This document shows, piece after piece, positions 1 to 4,300 of a stretch of DNA of 4,300 nt. The notes under the pieces are model-generated. The model searched no databases, had not been told where the DNA came from, and worked only from the letters and a program-made list of their open reading frames with translations. Origin of the DNA: a virus (taxonomy: Duplodnaviria > Heunggongvirae > Uroviricota > Caudoviricetes). A program made the translations under genes and the position numbers. Position 1 is the first letter of the stretch. The number at the start of each line of letters is the position of its first letter. The stretch lies in IMG/VR virus record IMGVR_UViG_2585427761_000013. The stretch is one strand, 5' to 3'.

Positions 1-579
1 GCGACGGAGGGTATCTCAGGGATGGTGAATAACATCACGGAGATGCTGAACGGAAATAAAGTGGAATGGCGCAGCTGGGCCTCATCAGTGCTGCAGGAAA
101 TATCAAAAGTTCTTATGAATGCCGCGATTGTCAACGGGATCAAGACGGCGGCAAACAGTATGTCCGGAGCGGGAGGATTTATCGGCAGTATTGGTAGCTG
201 GCTGGGCGGTGCGGTGGCCAATGCAAAAGGCGGGGTGTATACCTCGGCAAACCTGAGTGCGTACAGCAACAGTATTGTGGATACGCCCACGTACTTTGCC
301 TTTGCAAAAGGGGCGGGACTGATGGGGGAGGCCGGTCCTGAAGCCATTATGCCCCTGACCCGGGCGGCGGATGGCTCGCTGGGTGTGCGAGCGGTGGGCA
401 GTATGAACGGCAGTGCAGGTCTGGTGTATTCCCCGGTCTACCATATCGCCATTCAGAATGACGGGACTAATGGCCAGATAGGGCCGGAAGCTGCGGGCAG
501 CCTTGTGCAACTGATTGACCAGCGGGTGCAGGCGGTGATGCTGTCCATGCGACGTGACGGAGGAATGCTGAGTGGCTGA
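1..579 (+). CDS. H: Tail tape-measure protein, C-terminal part (lambda gpH-like); 5' end lies upstream of the window
   Basis: The frame is open from position 1 (no stop before the ATG at 22) and ends at TGA 577-579. The translation (…NGNKVEWRSWASSVLQEISKVLMNAAIVNGIKTAANSMSGAGGFIGS…) resembles the C-terminus of lambda gpH as I recall it. Its position directly upstream of M-L-K-I-J is the canonical gene order. Confidence 0.85.
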   Translation, partial: ATEGISGMVNNITEMLNGNKVEWRSWASSVLQEISKVLMNAAIVNGIKTAANSMSGAGGFIGSIGSWLGGAVANAKGGVYTSANLSAYSNSIVDTPTYFAFAKGAGLMGEAGPEAIMPLTRAADGSLGVRAVGSMNGSAGLVYSPVYHIAIQNDGTNGQIGPEAAGSLVQLIDQRVQAVMLSMRRDGGMLSG

Positions 580-913
580 GATAAAAACGCTGCATCTGGT
601 CCCGCGTGAAGGGATGCAGGTGAGTGAGAAACCGTCGGTGGCGAGGGTACGGTTTGGTGACGGTTATGAACAGCGCCGCCCGACGGGACTTAATGCCCGA
701 CTGAAGACGTTTCAGGCGGTGTTCCGGGTGACGGATGAGGCGACCCGGCGATGGCTGGAAGAGTTTTTATCGTGGCATGGTGGTTACCGTGCCTTTTTGT
801 GGCGACCGCCGAAACATAACCGGACGGTGAGGGTGGTATGCCGGGAGTGGAGCGTCACAGATAACGCCAGGTACAGTGATTTCAGTTGTACGATTGAGCA
901 GGTGGTGAACTGA
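572..913 (+). CDS. M: Minor tail protein M (lambda gpM-like), 113 aa
   Basis: The product contains VRFGDGYEQRRPTGLNA and ends in EQVVN, as lambda gpM does in my recollection. A GTG start at 572 is preceded by GGAGG (559-563) with an 8-nt spacer and overlaps the H stop. The exact start is uncertain, but an internal ATG would truncate the conserved N-terminus. Confidence 0.8.
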   Translation: MAEIKTLHLVPREGMQVSEKPSVARVRFGDGYEQRRPTGLNARLKTFQAVFRVTDEATRRWLEEFLSWHGGYRAFLWRPPKHNRTVRVVCREWSVTDNARYSDFSCTIEQVVN

Positions 914-1611
914 TGCAGGATATTCACGAAGAAAGTCTGAACGAGTCGGTTAAATCAGAGCAGTCACCGCGGGTGGTACTCTGGGAAATCGACCTGATGG
1001 TACAGGGCGGTGAGCGGTATTTTTTCTGTAATGAGCTGAATGAAAAAGGGGAGCCGGTCACCTGGCAGGGGCGTAAGTATGAGGCATACCCAATTGACGG
1101 CAGCGGCTTTGAGATGAACGGCCGGGGCAGCAGTGCCCGCCCGTCGCTGACGGTGTCCAATCTGTTTGGCCTTGTCACCGGGATGGCGGAGGACCTGCAG
1201 AGTCTGGTGGGGGCCACGGTGGTCCGCCGCCGGGTGTATGCCCGTTTTCTGGATGCGGTGAATTTCGTTGCGGGCAATCCGTCGGCGGACCCGGAGCAGG
1301 AGCTGAGTGACCGCTGGGTGGTGGAGCAGATGTCGCAGCTGACAGCCATGACGGCCTCGTTTGTGCTGGCCACACCGACCGAGACGGACGGGGCGCTGTT
1401 TCCCGGTCGCATCATGCTGGCGAACACCTGTATGTGGGATTACCGGGGAGATGAATGCGGGTATAACGGTCCTGCGGTGGCGGATGAGTTCGACAACCCC
1501 ACCACGGATATCCGTAAGGACAGATGCAGCAAGTGCATGCGCGGGTGTGAACTGCGCAGGAATGTCGGCAATTTTGGCGGTTTCCTTTCCATTAATAAAC
1601 TTTCGCAGTAA
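913..1611 (+). CDS. L: Minor tail protein L (lambda gpL-like), 232 aa
   Basis: The product (MQDIHEESLNE…VVLWEIDL…GGERYFFCNE…GEPVTWQGR…GNFGGFLSINKLSQ) closely matches lambda gpL as I recall it and is the same length. The start ATG at 913 overlaps the M stop (TGATG), and AGGTGG lies 7 nt upstream. Confidence 0.9.
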   Translation: MQDIHEESLNESVKSEQSPRVVLWEIDLMVQGGERYFFCNELNEKGEPVTWQGRKYEAYPIDGSGFEMNGRGSSARPSLTVSNLFGLVTGMAEDLQSLVGATVVRRRVYARFLDAVNFVAGNPSADPEQELSDRWVVEQMSQLTAMTASFVLATPTETDGALFPGRIMLANTCMWDYRGDECGYNGPAVADEFDNPTTDIRKDRCSKCMRGCELRRNVGNFGGFLSINKLSQ

Positions 1612-1621
1612 ATCCCGGTTT

Positions 1622-2365
1622 ATGACACAGACTGAATCAGCGATTCTGGCGCATGCCCGGCGGTGTGCGCCTGCGGAGTCGTGCGGCTTCGTGGTGAGAA
1701 CGCCGGAGGGGGAGCGGTATATCCCTTGTGTGAATATCTCTGCAGAGCCGGAGGCGTATTTTCGTATTGCACCGGAAGACTGGCTGCGGGCAGAGATGTC
1801 GGGGAAGATTGTGGCGCTGGTTCACAGTCATCCCGGTGGTCTGCCCTGGCTGAGCGAGGCTGACCGGCGGCTGCAGATAAAAAGCGCACTGCCCTGGTGG
1901 CTGGTCAGCCGGGGTGACATTCACAAATTCCGCTGTGTGCCACATCTGACAGGACGGCGCTTTGAGCACGGGGTGACGGACTGTTACACGCTGTTCCGGG
2001 ATGCTTATCATCTGGCGGGGACTGAAATGCCGGATTTTGAGCGTGAGGATGACTGGTGGCGCAACGGTCAGAACCTGTACCTGGACAATATGGAGGCGAC
2101 TGGTTTTTACAGGATTTCCCTGCCTTCCGCACAGCCTGGCGATATCCTGCTGTGCTGCTTTGGCGCATCGGTGGCCAATCATGCCGCCATATACTGCGGC
2201 AACGGTGAACTGCTTCACCATCTGCCTGAACAACTGAGTAAACGGGAGAGGTATTCCGAAAAATGGCAACGACGAACGCATTCTGTCTGGCGTCACCGCC
2301 ACTGGCACGCATCTGCCTTCACGGGGATTTGCAACGATTTGGCCGCCGCCTCAGCCTGTATGTGA
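1622..2365 (+). CDS. K: Tail assembly protein K: N-terminal JAB/MPN (JAMM) metalloprotease-like domain plus C-terminal NlpC/P60 cysteine peptidase domain, 247 aa
   Basis: The ATG at 1622 gives MTQTESAILAHARRC…. A JAMM-type motif H-S-H-x7-S-x2-D is present as HSHPGGLPWLSEAD (residues 68-81). NlpC/P60-like catalytic residues are Cys in GVTDCYTLF and His in ANHAAIY. The upstream part of ORF 1361..2365 overlaps L in another frame and is not coding. Confidence 0.9.
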   Translation: MTQTESAILAHARRCAPAESCGFVVRTPEGERYIPCVNISAEPEAYFRIAPEDWLRAEMSGKIVALVHSHPGGLPWLSEADRRLQIKSALPWWLVSRGDIHKFRCVPHLTGRRFEHGVTDCYTLFRDAYHLAGTEMPDFEREDDWWRNGQNLYLDNMEATGFYRISLPSAQPGDILLCCFGASVANHAAIYCGNGELLHHLPEQLSKRERYSEKWQRRTHSVWRHRHWHASAFTGICNDLAAASACM

Positions 2366-2943
2366 ACACGGCAGCGGAAGCCATCCGGGCGCTGTCGTTA
2401 CAGGTGCCCGGATTTCGCCGTCAGATGAACGAAGGGTGGTACCAGATACGTATTGCCGGTGATGACACGGCACCGGAGGCGGTGTACGCCCGTCTTCACG
2501 AACAGCTGGGTGAGGGAACGGTCATCCACATTGTGCCGCGACTGGCCGGGGCCAGAAAGGGTGGACTGCAGATTGTGCTGGGGGCGGCAGCCATCGTGGG
2601 GTCGTTCTTCACTGCCGGAGGCTCGATGGCGTTATGGGGTACAGCCCTGGCAGCCGGCGGTTTTTCTGCCACCACGATGCTGTTTTCACTGGGGGCCAGC
2701 ATGATACTGGGCGGTGTGGCCCAGATGCTGGCACCGAAGGCAAAAACACCGGATTACCGCGCAACGGATAACGGTAAACAGAACACGTATTTTTCCTCAC
2801 TGGACAATATGATTGCCCAGGGTAACCCGATGCCGGTGCCTTATGGTGAAATGCTGGTTGGCTCCCGCCGTATATCCCAGGACATCAGTACCCGTGATGA
2901 AGGCGGGGACGGAAAGGTCGTGGTTATCGGGCGGCAGGGGTAA
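2263..2943 (+). CDS. I: Tail assembly protein I: N-terminal ubiquitin-like (beta-grasp) domain ending in Gly-Gly, then a Gly/Ala-rich hydrophobic segment and a C-terminal domain, 226 aa
   Basis: The product (…ARICLHGDLQRFGRR…IHIVPRLAGARKGG LQIVLGAAAIVGSFF…QNTYFSSLDNMIAQGN…YGEML VGSRRISQDIST…VVVIGR) matches lambda gpI as I recall it. A GGGAGAGG stretch lies upstream of the ATG at 2263. The first 103 nt overlap the 3' end of K in a different frame, an overlap that lambda also has. Confidence 0.9.
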   Translation: MATTNAFCLASPPLARICLHGDLQRFGRRLSLYVNTAAEAIRALSLQVPGFRRQMNEGWYQIRIAGDDTAPEAVYARLHEQLGEGTVIHIVPRLAGARKGGLQIVLGAAAIVGSFFTAGGSMALWGTALAAGGFSATTMLFSLGASMILGGVAQMLAPKAKTPDYRATDNGKQNTYFSSLDNMIAQGNPMPVPYGEMLVGSRRISQDISTRDEGGDGKVVVIGRQG

Positions 2944-2944
2944 A

Positions 2945-2982
2945 AAGAATAAAAAAATCCCGCAGTGTTGCGGAACTGCGGG
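2945..2982 (-). terminator. Rho-independent terminator oriented for the minus strand (distal terminator of sodC)
   Basis: An 8-bp GC-rich stem (2959-2966 cccgcagt, 2975-2982 actgcggg) encloses an 8-nt loop. On the minus strand it is followed immediately by A-TTTTTTT-ATTCTTTTT (complement of 2945-2958). On the plus strand the hairpin is followed by agcgttacgaag, with no U-tract, so it is a poor plus-strand terminator. Confidence 0.6.
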
Positions 2983-3100
2983 AGCGTTACGAAGATTGAG
3001 TGTAAGGAATTATTCTTATGTCACGACAAAAACATTAACTCAGAGAGGGAGGATGTGCCGTTCTTTTCAGGGAGAAAGGATTTATCGTCCTGAGGAATAA

Positions 3101-3124
3101 AGGTAAGGGGCCCGCCCCTTACCT
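3101..3124 (-). terminator. Perfect 10-bp stem, 4-nt loop hairpin 6 nt downstream of the sodC stop; possible proximal terminator or 3' stabiliser
   Basis: The sequence aggtaagggg-cccg-ccccttacct is a perfect inverted repeat. On the minus strand it is followed by TTATTCC, a weak U-tract. No U-tract follows it on the plus strand. Confidence 0.4.
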
Positions 3125-3130
3125 GACTGA

Positions 3131-3658
3131 TTATTGAATGATGCCGCAGGCCATTCTCGCACCACCACCGCCCAGGGGCTCCGGATGGTCATGATGGTTA
3201 TCACCGCCAGCATGAAGCATGAGAGAACGCCCTTTAATCTCTTTTAATAAGTTCAGTCTCGGGGCCAGGACCGGGTAGTTCGCTTTTCCGTCATGCGTCA
3301 CGAACAGCGCAGGGAGGTCGCCCAGGTGTCCATCCGGAGACCAGGGGCCAAGATGTTTGCCGGTGTTTTTCGGGTCAAAGTGACCGCCAGCCGATAATGC
3401 TGCGACCGGTTTTCCGTCTTTCAGTGCCGGGGCGCAATTTCCTTTTTCGTGCACATGAAAACCATGAATGCCTTCAGACAGAGAGTGAAGGGCTGGTGTG
3501 AACAGCAGACCGTAGGGGGTCTCCTGAATGGTTATTTTTCCAATGCTGACTTCTTTTCCGTCAGCACTGACAAGGTTCATTGGGACTTCCTGTTCTGCTG
3601 CGTATCCGCATGATGCTGCTGTCAGCATGGCAATGGCAGCAATGATTTTACATTTCAT
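3131..3658 (-). CDS. sodC: Periplasmic copper/zinc superoxide dismutase precursor (SodC family), 175 aa, phage-borne cargo gene
   Basis: The minus-strand ATG at 3658 is preceded by GAGGG (complement of 3663-3667) and gives [24 protein letters not shown]…, a signal peptide. Cu,Zn-SOD hallmarks are present: [43 protein letters not shown] and [14 protein letters not shown], including both disulfide cysteines. The stop TAA is at 3131-3133. The longer listed ORF (3131..4165) is only an in-frame run lacking a stop. Confidence 0.9.
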
Positions 3659-3791
3659 AAAACCCTCATTAATTCCGTTAACAGACTGAGCTTGCTGGTT
3701 ACAGGGTAACAAACAGCGTTCTGATGATATCGCGCAATAGCTGTGCAATATCCTATCACTGCGATTAATAATACCAATTGAGAGGAACATT
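3659..3791. promoter_or_regulatory. Intergenic region between divergent sodC and J; presumed sodC promoter and operator region, also holding the J ribosome-binding site
   Basis: This 133-bp non-coding, comparatively AT-rich stretch is the only place a sodC promoter can sit. I could not find a clean sigma70 -35/-10 pair; TTGCAC and TATCAT-like hexamers exist but are badly spaced. The J RBS GAGAGGA is at 3780-3786, 5 nt before the ATG at 3792. Confidence 0.3.
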
Positions 3792-4300
3792 ATGGGTAAA
3801 GGTGGCGGCAGGGCGCACACGCCTCGAGAGGCGAAGGATAATCTCAAATCCACGCAGATGATGAGTGTGATTGATGCGATTGGTGAGGGACCGATAGAAG
3901 GCCCGGTGAAAGGCCTGCAGAGTATTCTGGTGAACAAAACCCCGCTGACGGACACGGACGGTAATCCCGTGATACACGGTGTGACGGCGGTCTGGCGCGC
4001 CGGGGAGCAGGAGCAGACACCACCGGAAGGCTTTGAGTCCTCCGGTGCTGAAACCGGACTGGGCGTGGAAGTGACGAAGGCAAAACCGGTGACGCGCACC
4101 ATTACGTCTGCGAACATTGACCGCCTGCGGGTTACCTTCGGGGTGCAGTCACTGGTGCAGACCACGTCAAAGGGCGACCGTAATCCTTCCTCTGTCCGGA
4201 TTCTGATTCAGTTACAGCGTAATGGCCGCTGGGTGACGGAAAAGGACGTCACCATTAACGGCAAGACCACCTCACAGTTCCTGGCCTCGGTGATTCTGGA
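3792..4300 (+). CDS. J: Host specificity / central tail fibre protein J, N-terminal part; continues beyond the window
   Basis: The ATG at 3792 follows GAGAGGA. The frame stays open to the window end, which is why the ORF track omits it. Hand translation gives [42 protein letters not shown]…[15 protein letters not shown]…[13 protein letters not shown]…TSKGDRNPS…, which matches the lambda gpJ N-terminus as I recall it. Confidence 0.9.

Follow-up and report, generated by a model that had tools for sequence, protein, structure and literature searches.

A sodC moron probably joined to a promoterless PasB/EcOnc22-family sRNA gene in the tail-tip region of an Escherichia coli lambdoid prophage

Background

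In the concept of Juhala and Hendrix, the morons of lambdoid phages, such as lom and bor of lambda or sodCI of Gifsy-2, are extra genes lying between genes that are neighbors in related phages; they sit inside the late operon, possess a terminator of their own and are expressed in the lysogen. A second class of elements relevant here is that of the Hfq-binding small RNAs (sRNAs) derived from 3' untranslated regions, of which CpxQ and SroC are the type and which are promoterless, co-oriented directly behind a coding gene and ended by an Hfq-type terminator. Late transcription in lambdoid phages is antiterminated by Q. This antitermination has been documented for the late transcripts of Stx phages (PMC7547250).

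Three described systems come close to the locus studied in this work. The first is the pair of prophage-borne superoxide dismutase genes of O157 strains, sodC-F1 and sodC-F2, which are expressed in lysogens during logarithmic and stationary phase, anaerobically and independently of rpoS (D'Orazio et al. 2008, PMC2569942), and for which a 299-bp upstream fragment of sodC-F has been found to have promoter activity (PMC2569942). The subject of the sodC-F study is the enzyme together with its promoter; it addresses neither terminators nor a downstream sRNA module, and the word 'terminator' is absent from it (PMC2569942).

The second is PasB, an sRNA of prophage PP6 in enteropathogenic E. coli (EPEC) E2348/69, which spans 83 nt from 1466343 to 1466261 of NC_011601.1 (PMC8550237, Tables S2/S5/S6). 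Its 3' end has been mapped at a U-tract, it takes part in 37 RIL-seq interactions, its level changes by a log2 fold change of -6.8 in an hfq deletion strain, and its northern probe was AATCCCGCAGTGATCGCGGAGCT (PMC8550237). PasB sits inside a phage structural operon, and the site proposed for its seed is immediately 5' of the terminator hairpin (Zhu, Shabalina and Storz, 2026 preprint). The third is the set formed by EcOnc22, EcOnc23 and EcOnc24, which belong, respectively, to prophages Sp15, Sp14 and Sp11 of enterohemorrhagic E. coli (EHEC) Sakai (Tree et al. 2014, PMC4104026; Waters et al. 2017, PMC5286369); EcOnc22 measures about 85 nt by northern blot and is destabilized without Hfq (PMC4104026, Table S2). 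The equivalence of EcOnc22 and PasB is not noted in the PasB papers examined, in whose text the term 'EcOnc' does not occur.

Here we analyze a stretch of 4,300 nucleotides (the window) from the IMG/VR record IMGVR_UViG_2585427761_000013. None of the components is new, since the sodC moron, the PasB/EcOnc22 sRNA and intrinsic terminators acting in one direction have each been described before; the window brings them together in a single intergenic slot.

Results

Gene context of the window

The window contains the following genes, together with the region that separates the last two.

22-579, plus strand: C-terminus of the tape-measure protein (Pfam)
572-913, plus strand: gene M (open reading frame list, Pfam)
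913-1611, plus strand: gene L (open reading frame list, Pfam)
1622-2365, plus strand: gene K (open reading frame list, Pfam)
2263-2943, plus strand: tail assembly gene I, stop codon TAA at 2941-2943 (Pfam Lambda_tail_I, E = 5.9e-16; annotated homologues)
3131-3658, minus strand: sodC, periplasmic Cu/Zn superoxide dismutase of 175 aa, moron cargo (Pfam Sod_Cu, E = 1.1e-32)
3659-3791, no strand assigned: sodC upstream region, with the sodC promoter expected on the minus strand, and cassette-borne ribosome-binding site of J
3792-4300, plus strand: 5' part of the tail tip/host specificity gene J (Pfam FNIII-A_GpJ, E = 5.9e-24; annotations)

The window corresponds to the tail-tip region of a lambdoid prophage of E. 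coli, and over the 261 nt around the two hairpins analyzed below its identity with E. coli 2014C-3011 is 100%. The gene context assumed in the preliminary description of this DNA was correct, since Pfam places M, L, K, I and J on the plus strand and SodC on the minus strand, and so was its contention that late transcripts must cross sodC antisense, J being downstream of sodC and on the opposite strand.

Several traits mark sodC as a moron. The gene is absent between I and J in related phages, where the I-J gap without sodC amounts to about 60-340 bp (lambda, PhiR5_1, 569R3, E2348/69 PP6 and many IMG/VR loci), and it has its own terminator in hairpin 2 (HP2), which starts 6 nt after the sodC stop codon. 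Like other lambdoid morons, sodC is an extra gene between the neighbors of its relatives, terminated on its own, probably expressed in lysogens and embedded in the late operon; unlike them it is antisense to that operon, and it has replaced part of a resident sRNA gene, whereas they were added between coding genes. With respect to Gifsy-2 sodCI, identity reaches only 68.5% over the coding core and the flanks share nothing. Homologues are annotated as sodC in Stx2 phages, EDL933 and Sakai Sp4. O157 sodC-F1 and sodC-F2 represent the same cassette, with EDL933 and Sakai Sp4 sharing the junction and both hairpins, and the proposed expression of sodC in the lysogen finds support in these near-identical genes (PMC2569942). 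A consensus scan of the region upstream of sodC in the window gave no promoter match of 9/12 or better.

Two minus-strand terminator hairpins

Two hairpins occupy the interval between gene I and sodC.

2959-2982, minus strand (2951-2983 with the closing pair and U7): hairpin 1, HP1 (fold, terminator scan)
3101-3124, minus strand (3093-3124 with the interrupted U-tract): hairpin 2, HP2 (fold, terminator scan)

HP1 is made up of the stem CCCGCAGU/ACUGCGGG, an 8-nt loop and the closing pair U2958-A2983, and its minus-strand fold has a free energy of -16.1 kcal/mol (z = -4.3), which none of 200 shuffles equalled. HP2 has a 10-bp stem capped by a tetraloop (-17.4 kcal/mol, z = -3.1, with 1 of 200 shuffles as good). 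In a scan of the window, which contains 11 terminator-like sites against 3.4 +/- 1.9 in shuffles, HP1 and HP2 were the top two matches, both of them on the minus strand. On that strand each hairpin combines a stable, GC-rich stem-loop with a 3' U-tract, the two hallmarks of intrinsic terminators: HP1 is followed by U7 (2957 to 2951) and then by A-UUCUUUUU, and HP2 by the tail UUAUUCCUCA, the U-tract of which (UUAUUCCU) is interrupted. The plus-strand tails (GCGUUACGAAG for HP1, GACUGAUUAUUG for HP2) contain no U-tract, and neither hairpin has the second tail of a bidirectional terminator, the plus-strand sequences GCGUUACG and GACUGAUU being devoid of one. The formula of d'Aubenton-Carafa, applied here with modern energy parameters and hence yielding scores of which only the relative values count, returned +42 (minus) and -48 (plus) for HP1, and a borderline -0.8 to +9.8 (minus) and -42 (plus) for HP2. 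Folds and scores thereby confirm the position of both hairpins, the restriction of their U-tracts to the minus strand and the ranking of HP1 as strong and HP2 as weak.

HP2 travels with the sodC cassette and shows no variation among those sodC-linked variants of the survey that extend across it; it is the predicted intrinsic terminator of sodC itself, and a leaky one by the same prediction. The stem of HP1, CCCGCAG/CUGCGGG, is common to 91 loci, although the search pattern selected for it. All 7 bp are invariant in this set, where the pattern had required the stem, and covariation consequently lends HP1 no support; its structural support rests on thermodynamics and on experimentally mapped homologues.

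HP1 as the 3' end of a PasB/EcOnc22-family sRNA

The sRNA-related features of the window lie between gene I and the sodC cassette.

2951-3041, minus strand: PasB-family sRNA-equivalent region of 91 nt, from the predicted +1 at G3041 to the end of the U-tract (nhmmer)
2991-2997, minus strand: AAUCUUC motif, 8-14 nt 5' of the terminator (alignment)
3009-3017, minus strand: A-rich run AAGAAUAAU of the A-R-N type, with A columns invariant across variants (alignment)

The preliminary description had viewed the two hairpins as a stack assembled for sodC. HP1 and some 64 bp adjoining it are, however, resident in 79 surveyed loci without sodC, where they follow directly upon the gene I stop codon and are served by a promoter of their own; the sodC-less phages and prophages with this arrangement include PhiR5_1, 569R3, PhiR12_1, E2348/69 PP6, Sakai Sp15 and Sp14 and more than 70 IMG/VR loci. 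In these sodC-less loci the same terminator ends an sRNA body of about 90-100 nt on the minus strand, preceded by the near-consensus sigma70 promoter TTCACA-16-TATAAT, which matches the consensus at 11/12 positions in E2348/69 and 569R3 and at 10/12 in L027. In E2348/69 this resident element is PasB itself and in Sakai Sp15 it is EcOnc22, the two copies with documented expression and Hfq binding. The full promoter was scanned in three loci (L005, L003 and L027), and the -10-like hexamer of the 79 loci was detected by a lenient screen.

Together with its U7, HP1 is the predicted terminator and Hfq-type 3' module of an Hfq-dependent sRNA of the PasB/EcOnc22 family. The CCCGCAG/CUGCGGG stem followed by U7 has the composition of such a module (a hairpin and at least 6 U), and the copy in the window shares with PasB and EcOnc22-24 both sequence homology and the antisense position in the I-J slot. 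In nhmmer searches the 91-nt region matched PasB of E2348/69 with E = 2.5e-6, EcOnc22 with E = 1.8e-7 and a profile built only from 15 sodC-less variants with E = 4e-20. The two validated members themselves are no more than 62-65% identical to it. The link runs through intermediates and synteny. The region is 95.7% identical to the promoter-bearing locus L013 and presents 3 differences from L027; it extends from 3041 to 2951, ending 8 nt from the TAA of gene I, with the same geometry in E2348/69 and Sakai Sp15.

PasB resembles the copy in the window in its I-J slot, in its antisense orientation to the tail genes and in having its 3' end 6-8 nt from the gene I stop codon, and the two share the CCCGCAG/CUGCGGG stem, the U7, an AAUCUUC-type motif and the A-rich run. 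The northern probe of PasB, AATCCCGCAGTGATCGCGGAGCT, is the hairpin itself and matches the homologous stem of HP1, and the mapped 5' end of EPEC PasB falls at about 3028 in window coordinates. Body identity, on the other hand, is only 62%, with a different putative seed segment, and the copy in the window is located behind sodC and has no TTCACA-N16-TATAAT promoter. As regards EcOnc22, its identity can be taken as verified because an RNase E-CLASH hybrid read bearing that label contains GCCTGAAAAATAACTCCATAACGTTAATCTTCA, which is exactly L008 1353-1385; the implied offset from NC_002695.1 to NC_002695.2 (+135) agrees with the StxS tR' landmark. EcOnc22 and the window copy coincide in slot, strand and terminator at 65% identity, but their seeds differ, the EcOnc22 segment CCAUAACGUU being the one that pairs with ECs5028 in the hybrid read, and EcOnc22, EcOnc23 and EcOnc24 have, unlike the window copy, their own promoter, of the TTCCGG-17-AATAAT type by visual inspection of the sequence.

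Alignment of 26 distinct family sequences reveals a shared G.GUUA start, a U-run, an A-rich, A-R-N-like run, a UCC, the ATCTT core of an AAUCUUC motif placed 8-15 nt ahead of the terminator, the CCCGCAG/CUGCGGG stem and a U6-U7 tract. The ATCTT core is invariant and its flanking A and C nearly so, making this the best-conserved single-stranded motif of the family, while variability concentrates in the central body and in the terminator loop, which ranges from 8 to 16 nt. This shows a family wider in scope than the PasB set defined by BLAST, comprising at least 5 body/seed variants that share one promoter and one terminator; a wider sRNA family with several seed variants is not described in the papers examined. 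The A-rich run at 3009-3017 is a putative Hfq distal-face site, A-R-N motifs being given as Hfq sites in PMC4104026.

Other sRNA identities were considered. No Rfam family reached threshold on the window or on the sodC-less loci, and AgvB (RF02702) and AsxR (RF02703) gave no match in Rfam; a hit to STnc400 at 3091-3167, with E = 0.33 and 23 bits where the gathering score is 80, is noise. HnrS (EcOnc10-12) is also a multicopy sRNA of prophage late genes, but EcOnc11 lies downstream of the endopeptidase gene (Rz) and before terminase rather than in the tail region. EcOnc35, from Sp4, is found near the holin gene and is not a sodC-linked copy.

Boundaries and distribution of the sodC cassette

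Two further features define where the sRNA-equivalent region ends and the cassette begins.

3046/3047, no strand: left cassette junction, at -5/-6 from the predicted sRNA +1, with BLAST homology to sodC-less loci ending at 3046
3047-3100, minus strand: 3' tail of the cassette, 54 nt, between HP2 and the sRNA region, with no promoter recognized

Comparison with the relatives indicates that a sodC cassette of 745 bp (3047-3791) replaces the stretch running from just after the sRNA -10 hexamer to the start codon of J. In the relatives the segment replaced measures about 140-240 bp and includes the promoter of the sRNA, a terminator-like hairpin on the plus strand and the ribosome-binding site of J; the cassette contributes the 54-nt tail, HP2, the sodC gene with its upstream region and a new ribosome-binding site for J. 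The right junction is the J start codon itself, for the 110 nt preceding it bear no relation to sodC-less loci, whereas from the ATG onward the sequences are similar again. No residual homology above shuffles (p = 0.27-0.82) was found between the cassette tail or HP2 and the family promoter or plus-strand hairpin.

The preliminary description gave the length of the spacer between the hairpins correctly as 118 bp (2983-3100) and left it without an explained function. Of its length, the sRNA body takes up 59 nt and the initial region of the sRNA 5 nt, the other 54 nt being cassette tail. That it should instead encode a small protein, for instance through the 42-aa plus-strand open reading frame at 2965-3093, can hardly be believed. 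Open reading frames do exist on paper, PhiR12_1 has an annotated 32-aa 'hypothetical protein' in the homologous region and the gap in Sakai locus tags (ECs_1118, then ECs_1120) might reflect a former open reading frame call, but the family variants are set apart by unrelated segments and by indels of 1, 2, 5 and 6 nt, with no frame conserved, and in homologues this region is an experimentally Hfq-bound sRNA.

The left junction is identical in all 12 of the sodC-linked loci surveyed and, because it is shared in this way, points to a probable single ancestral event behind the sodC-linked arrangement. Over the cassette, identity to Stx2_EH2201 is 99.9%, and over the wider 2700-3900 stretch, flanks included, it is 97.5%. 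The sodC-linked loci display two types of terminator loop, one exactly equal to that of a sodC-less copy and the other one loop base away from its sodC-less counterpart, and this sharing or near-sharing of loop types indicates likely recombination within the sRNA. The arrangement is present in 539 of 5,426 complete E. coli genomes (~10%), including O157:H7 EDL933 and Sakai Sp4; in the latter the gene order is ECs_1118, sodC_1 (ECs_1120), ECs_1121.

Plus-strand termination and the passage of late transcripts

The poor plus-strand termination of both hairpins had been regarded as a requirement for late transcripts to reach J. Lambda and the sodC-less relatives contradict this, since they carry a terminator-like hairpin on the plus strand immediately before J. 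In lambda the I-J interval carries AAACCGCCTGCGGGCGGTTTTGTCATTT, a hairpin of this kind just upstream of J, and E2348/69 PP6, L027 and PhiR5_1 have at the equivalent position a plus-strand hairpin of 9-10 bp with a U-rich tail, which in E2348/69 and L027 reads UGUUUUUG. Plus-strand terminators would therefore appear to be tolerated directly upstream of J, and the antitermination of late transcription by Q further undercuts plus-strand leakiness as a requirement.

These observations bear on the reading first given to the locus, namely that of a unidirectional stack purpose-built for sodC, in which plus-strand weakness lets J be reached and antisense collision works as a switch between lysogeny and lysis. 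The minus-only orientation of both hairpins, the access to J through sodC in antisense and the expression of sodC-F in lysogens (PMC2569942) all speak for it. We nevertheless consider it improbable, given that HP1 predates sodC and terminates an sRNA in 79 sodC-less loci, that lambda and the sodC-less relatives have terminator-like hairpins on the plus strand before J, and that Q antitermination makes the orientation of terminators irrelevant for late transcription. A lifestyle switch through antisense transcription could arise with any antisense moron and is hypothetical in this one.

Residual output of the sRNA module

Since the cassette replaces the promoter region up to the J start, the sRNA module of the window is promoterless and co-oriented behind sodC. 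At the positions of the -10 and -35 hexamers the window reads CATCCT and TTTCTC, and the sequence directly upstream of the sRNA is unrelated cassette DNA, in which no sigma70 promoter of its own was found. A scan of the minus strand from 3200 to 3030, between sodC and the sRNA, returned no sigma70-like promoter of 8/12 or better. The best lenient match (7/12, GAGAAT-17-AATAAT) lies inside the 3' end of sodC, upstream of HP2, and is not credible for the sRNA.

The sRNA might still be an independent gene if an unrecognized promoter, dependent on an activator or on an alternative sigma factor, were hidden in the cassette tail (3047-3100). Consensus scans do miss many real promoters, and the junction falls exactly at the boundary between promoter and transcript, but with CATCCT and TTTCTC as hexamers, nothing reaching 8/12 and no similarity to the family promoter, we deem such an element very unlikely.

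A different route to a functional product would be processing. Transcripts reading through from sodC could be cut by RNase E in the AU-rich segment around 3028-3040, releasing an Hfq-binding sRNA of roughly 78-90 nt that would follow the sodC promoter. The module is placed as expected of a 3'UTR-derived sRNA, promoterless and co-oriented behind sodC, with HP2 intervening. The junction retains the whole transcribed region from -5, all 12 sodC-linked loci have body, AAUCUUC motif, A-rich run, stem and U6-U7 tract intact, and the U-tract of HP2 is interrupted and its score borderline. In addition, the 5' end of EPEC PasB, deduced from coverage, is found some 15 nt past the predicted +1, immediately behind the U-run, and is compatible with a processed form. 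Against this, the GC stem of HP2 is strong and may terminate efficiently, and the intactness of the sodC-linked copies is no proof of selection, given their youth (96-100% identity). No EcOnc is listed at the sodC locus of Sakai Sp4 in the Hfq-CRAC and CLASH tables examined, a weak negative in that the published filter dropped peaks <100 nt from annotated features, and ECs1119, ECs1120 and sodC are absent from the RNase E-CLASH supplements examined. A search for sodC 3' transcripts of Sakai Sp4 in the supplements and main texts of Tree et al. (2014) and Waters et al. (2017) likewise found no mention of ECs1119, ECs1120 or sodC. On balance, continued production of the sRNA by this route is a tentative proposition, on the doubtful side.

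Discussion

The evidence assembled here argues with good confidence for a composite origin of the region by cassette exchange in the I-J slot, HP2 being the terminator of sodC and the HP1 module an orphaned sRNA. Sequence comparison and the published experiments on homologues show what the parts are and where they come from. Under this composite model, the stacking of the terminators is incidental, resulting from an exchange of cassettes beside a resident sRNA gene.

For termination efficiencies, read-through and residual sRNA output at the window locus we infer the following course of events. Most sodC transcripts would stop at HP2, and some would read through it, because its U-tract is interrupted, to stop at the strong HP1 terminator before entering gene I in antisense. 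The orphaned sRNA module would thus act as a fail-safe terminator and would constitute the 3' end of a minor, long isoform of the sodC mRNA.

The promoterless copy of the sRNA behind sodC (12 loci; 539/5,426 genomes) appears to be undescribed. The PasB, Tree 2014 and sodC-F papers examined contain no description of sodC on a decapitated sRNA gene, and the term 'sodC' is absent from the PasB preprint and from the text and supplements of Tree et al. (2014). The closest analogs among 3'UTR-derived sRNAs, those of the CpxQ and SroC type, share with the window module the lack of a promoter, the location directly behind a co-oriented coding gene and the Hfq-type terminator end; the window module differs from them in the separate terminator, HP2, that stands between coding sequence and sRNA, and in having demonstrably been an independent gene once.

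The analysis connects three bodies of work that make no reference to one another in this respect, those on the O157 sodC-F morons, on EPEC PasB and on EHEC EcOnc22-24, and it portrays the I-J intergenic slot as a recombination joint at which sRNA, terminators and cargo are swapped. It is conceivable, if rather unlikely, that the sodC cassette has captured the resident sRNA and turned it into a read-through, 3'UTR-type product of sodC. Were this so, the output of the regulator would follow the sodC promoter (in logarithmic phase, under anaerobiosis and inside host cells) and would be adjusted by how leaky the sodC terminator is. Should read-through still yield the orphaned copy, the locus would provide a natural case of an independent sRNA gene becoming a 3'UTR-derived one.

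The sRNA family and other occupants of the I-J intergenic region

The EHEC sRNAs EcOnc22, EcOnc23 and EcOnc24 (Tree 2014, PMC4104026) and the EPEC sRNA PasB (Pearl Mizrahi 2021, PMC8550237) constitute a single family residing in the same phage slot, the intergenic region between tail genes I and J; no EHEC homologue of PasB is listed in the supplementary table of the PasB study (PMC8550237). Copies in two Sakai prophages are as follows:

L008 (Sp15), 1353-1385: EcOnc22
L009 (Sp14): related copy

The EcOnc22 segment CCAUAACGUU was paired with ECs5028 in a CLASH hybrid, and the seed is hence located in the variable body of the sRNA. The targets of variants such as that of the window probably differ.

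The slot harbors further arrangements. In one IMG/VR contig, L013 (3400-4650), the sRNA promoter region and J are separated by an IS3-family insertion with OrfA/OrfB-like ORFs of 115 and 248 aa, so that J starts 1,592 bp away from the sRNA terminator. A third type of intergenic cassette, present in L003 (1930-2000) and in loci of the 329-337-bp class such as L016, comprises some 100 bp of extra sequence between the sRNA promoter and J, with a further plus-strand hairpin (AAACCCCGGTATC...GATACCGGGGTTTCTCTTT); the 78-aa 'tail fiber protein' annotated in this region of 569R3 in GenBank looks spurious.

A plus-strand hairpin upstream of J

In lambda and in the short class of sodC-less relatives (227-235 bp), a hairpin that resembles a terminator and has a U-rich tail lies on the plus strand immediately 5' of J, within the late operon:

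L005, 1931-1954, plus strand
L027, 1195-1218, plus strand
L002, approximately 1925-1950
lambda-type loci (L096, L110 etc.), about 25 nt past the gene I stop

Compensatory changes distinguish its variants (GGCACC...GGUGCC versus GGCAUCC...GGAUGCC). The sodC cassette lacks this hairpin, which in lysogens might keep transcription that has not been antiterminated from entering J.

Annotation of sodC and gene I

A match to STnc400 (Rfam) at the sodC 3' end and its terminator hairpin (window 3091-3167, minus strand) was dismissed as noise: it scored 23 bits where the gathering score is 80 (E = 0.33), and this weak match is driven by the hairpin. The longest gene I ORF of the window shares 103 nt with the end of K (2263-2365), and the annotated length of gene I differs between records, being either 681 nt (Stx2_EH2201) or 582 nt (PhiR5_1, RefSeq). 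Among matches in genome contigs, gene I of lambda or E. coli-prophage type (66-97% identity) was also found on short contigs (L093, L096-L109, L111, L117-L121, L123-L127) filed under Streptomyces, Neobacillus, Pseudoxanthomonas, Enterococcus, Bradyrhizobium and other unrelated organisms, almost certainly reflecting contamination of the assemblies with lambda or E. coli DNA.

sodC in the I-J slot of another lineage

The I-J slot of another lambdoid lineage, with a gene I 60% identical, also bears sodC:

L114 (Citrobacter meridianamericanus NZ_JAJJVQ010000003.1), 3145-3800: region of the slot
L114, 3196-3726, minus strand: sodC, 176 aa

L114 lacks a PasB-type element, and the stretch that separates sodC from gene I holds no recognisable terminator. 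These features suggest that the I-J slot has been used for sodC independently and recurrently.
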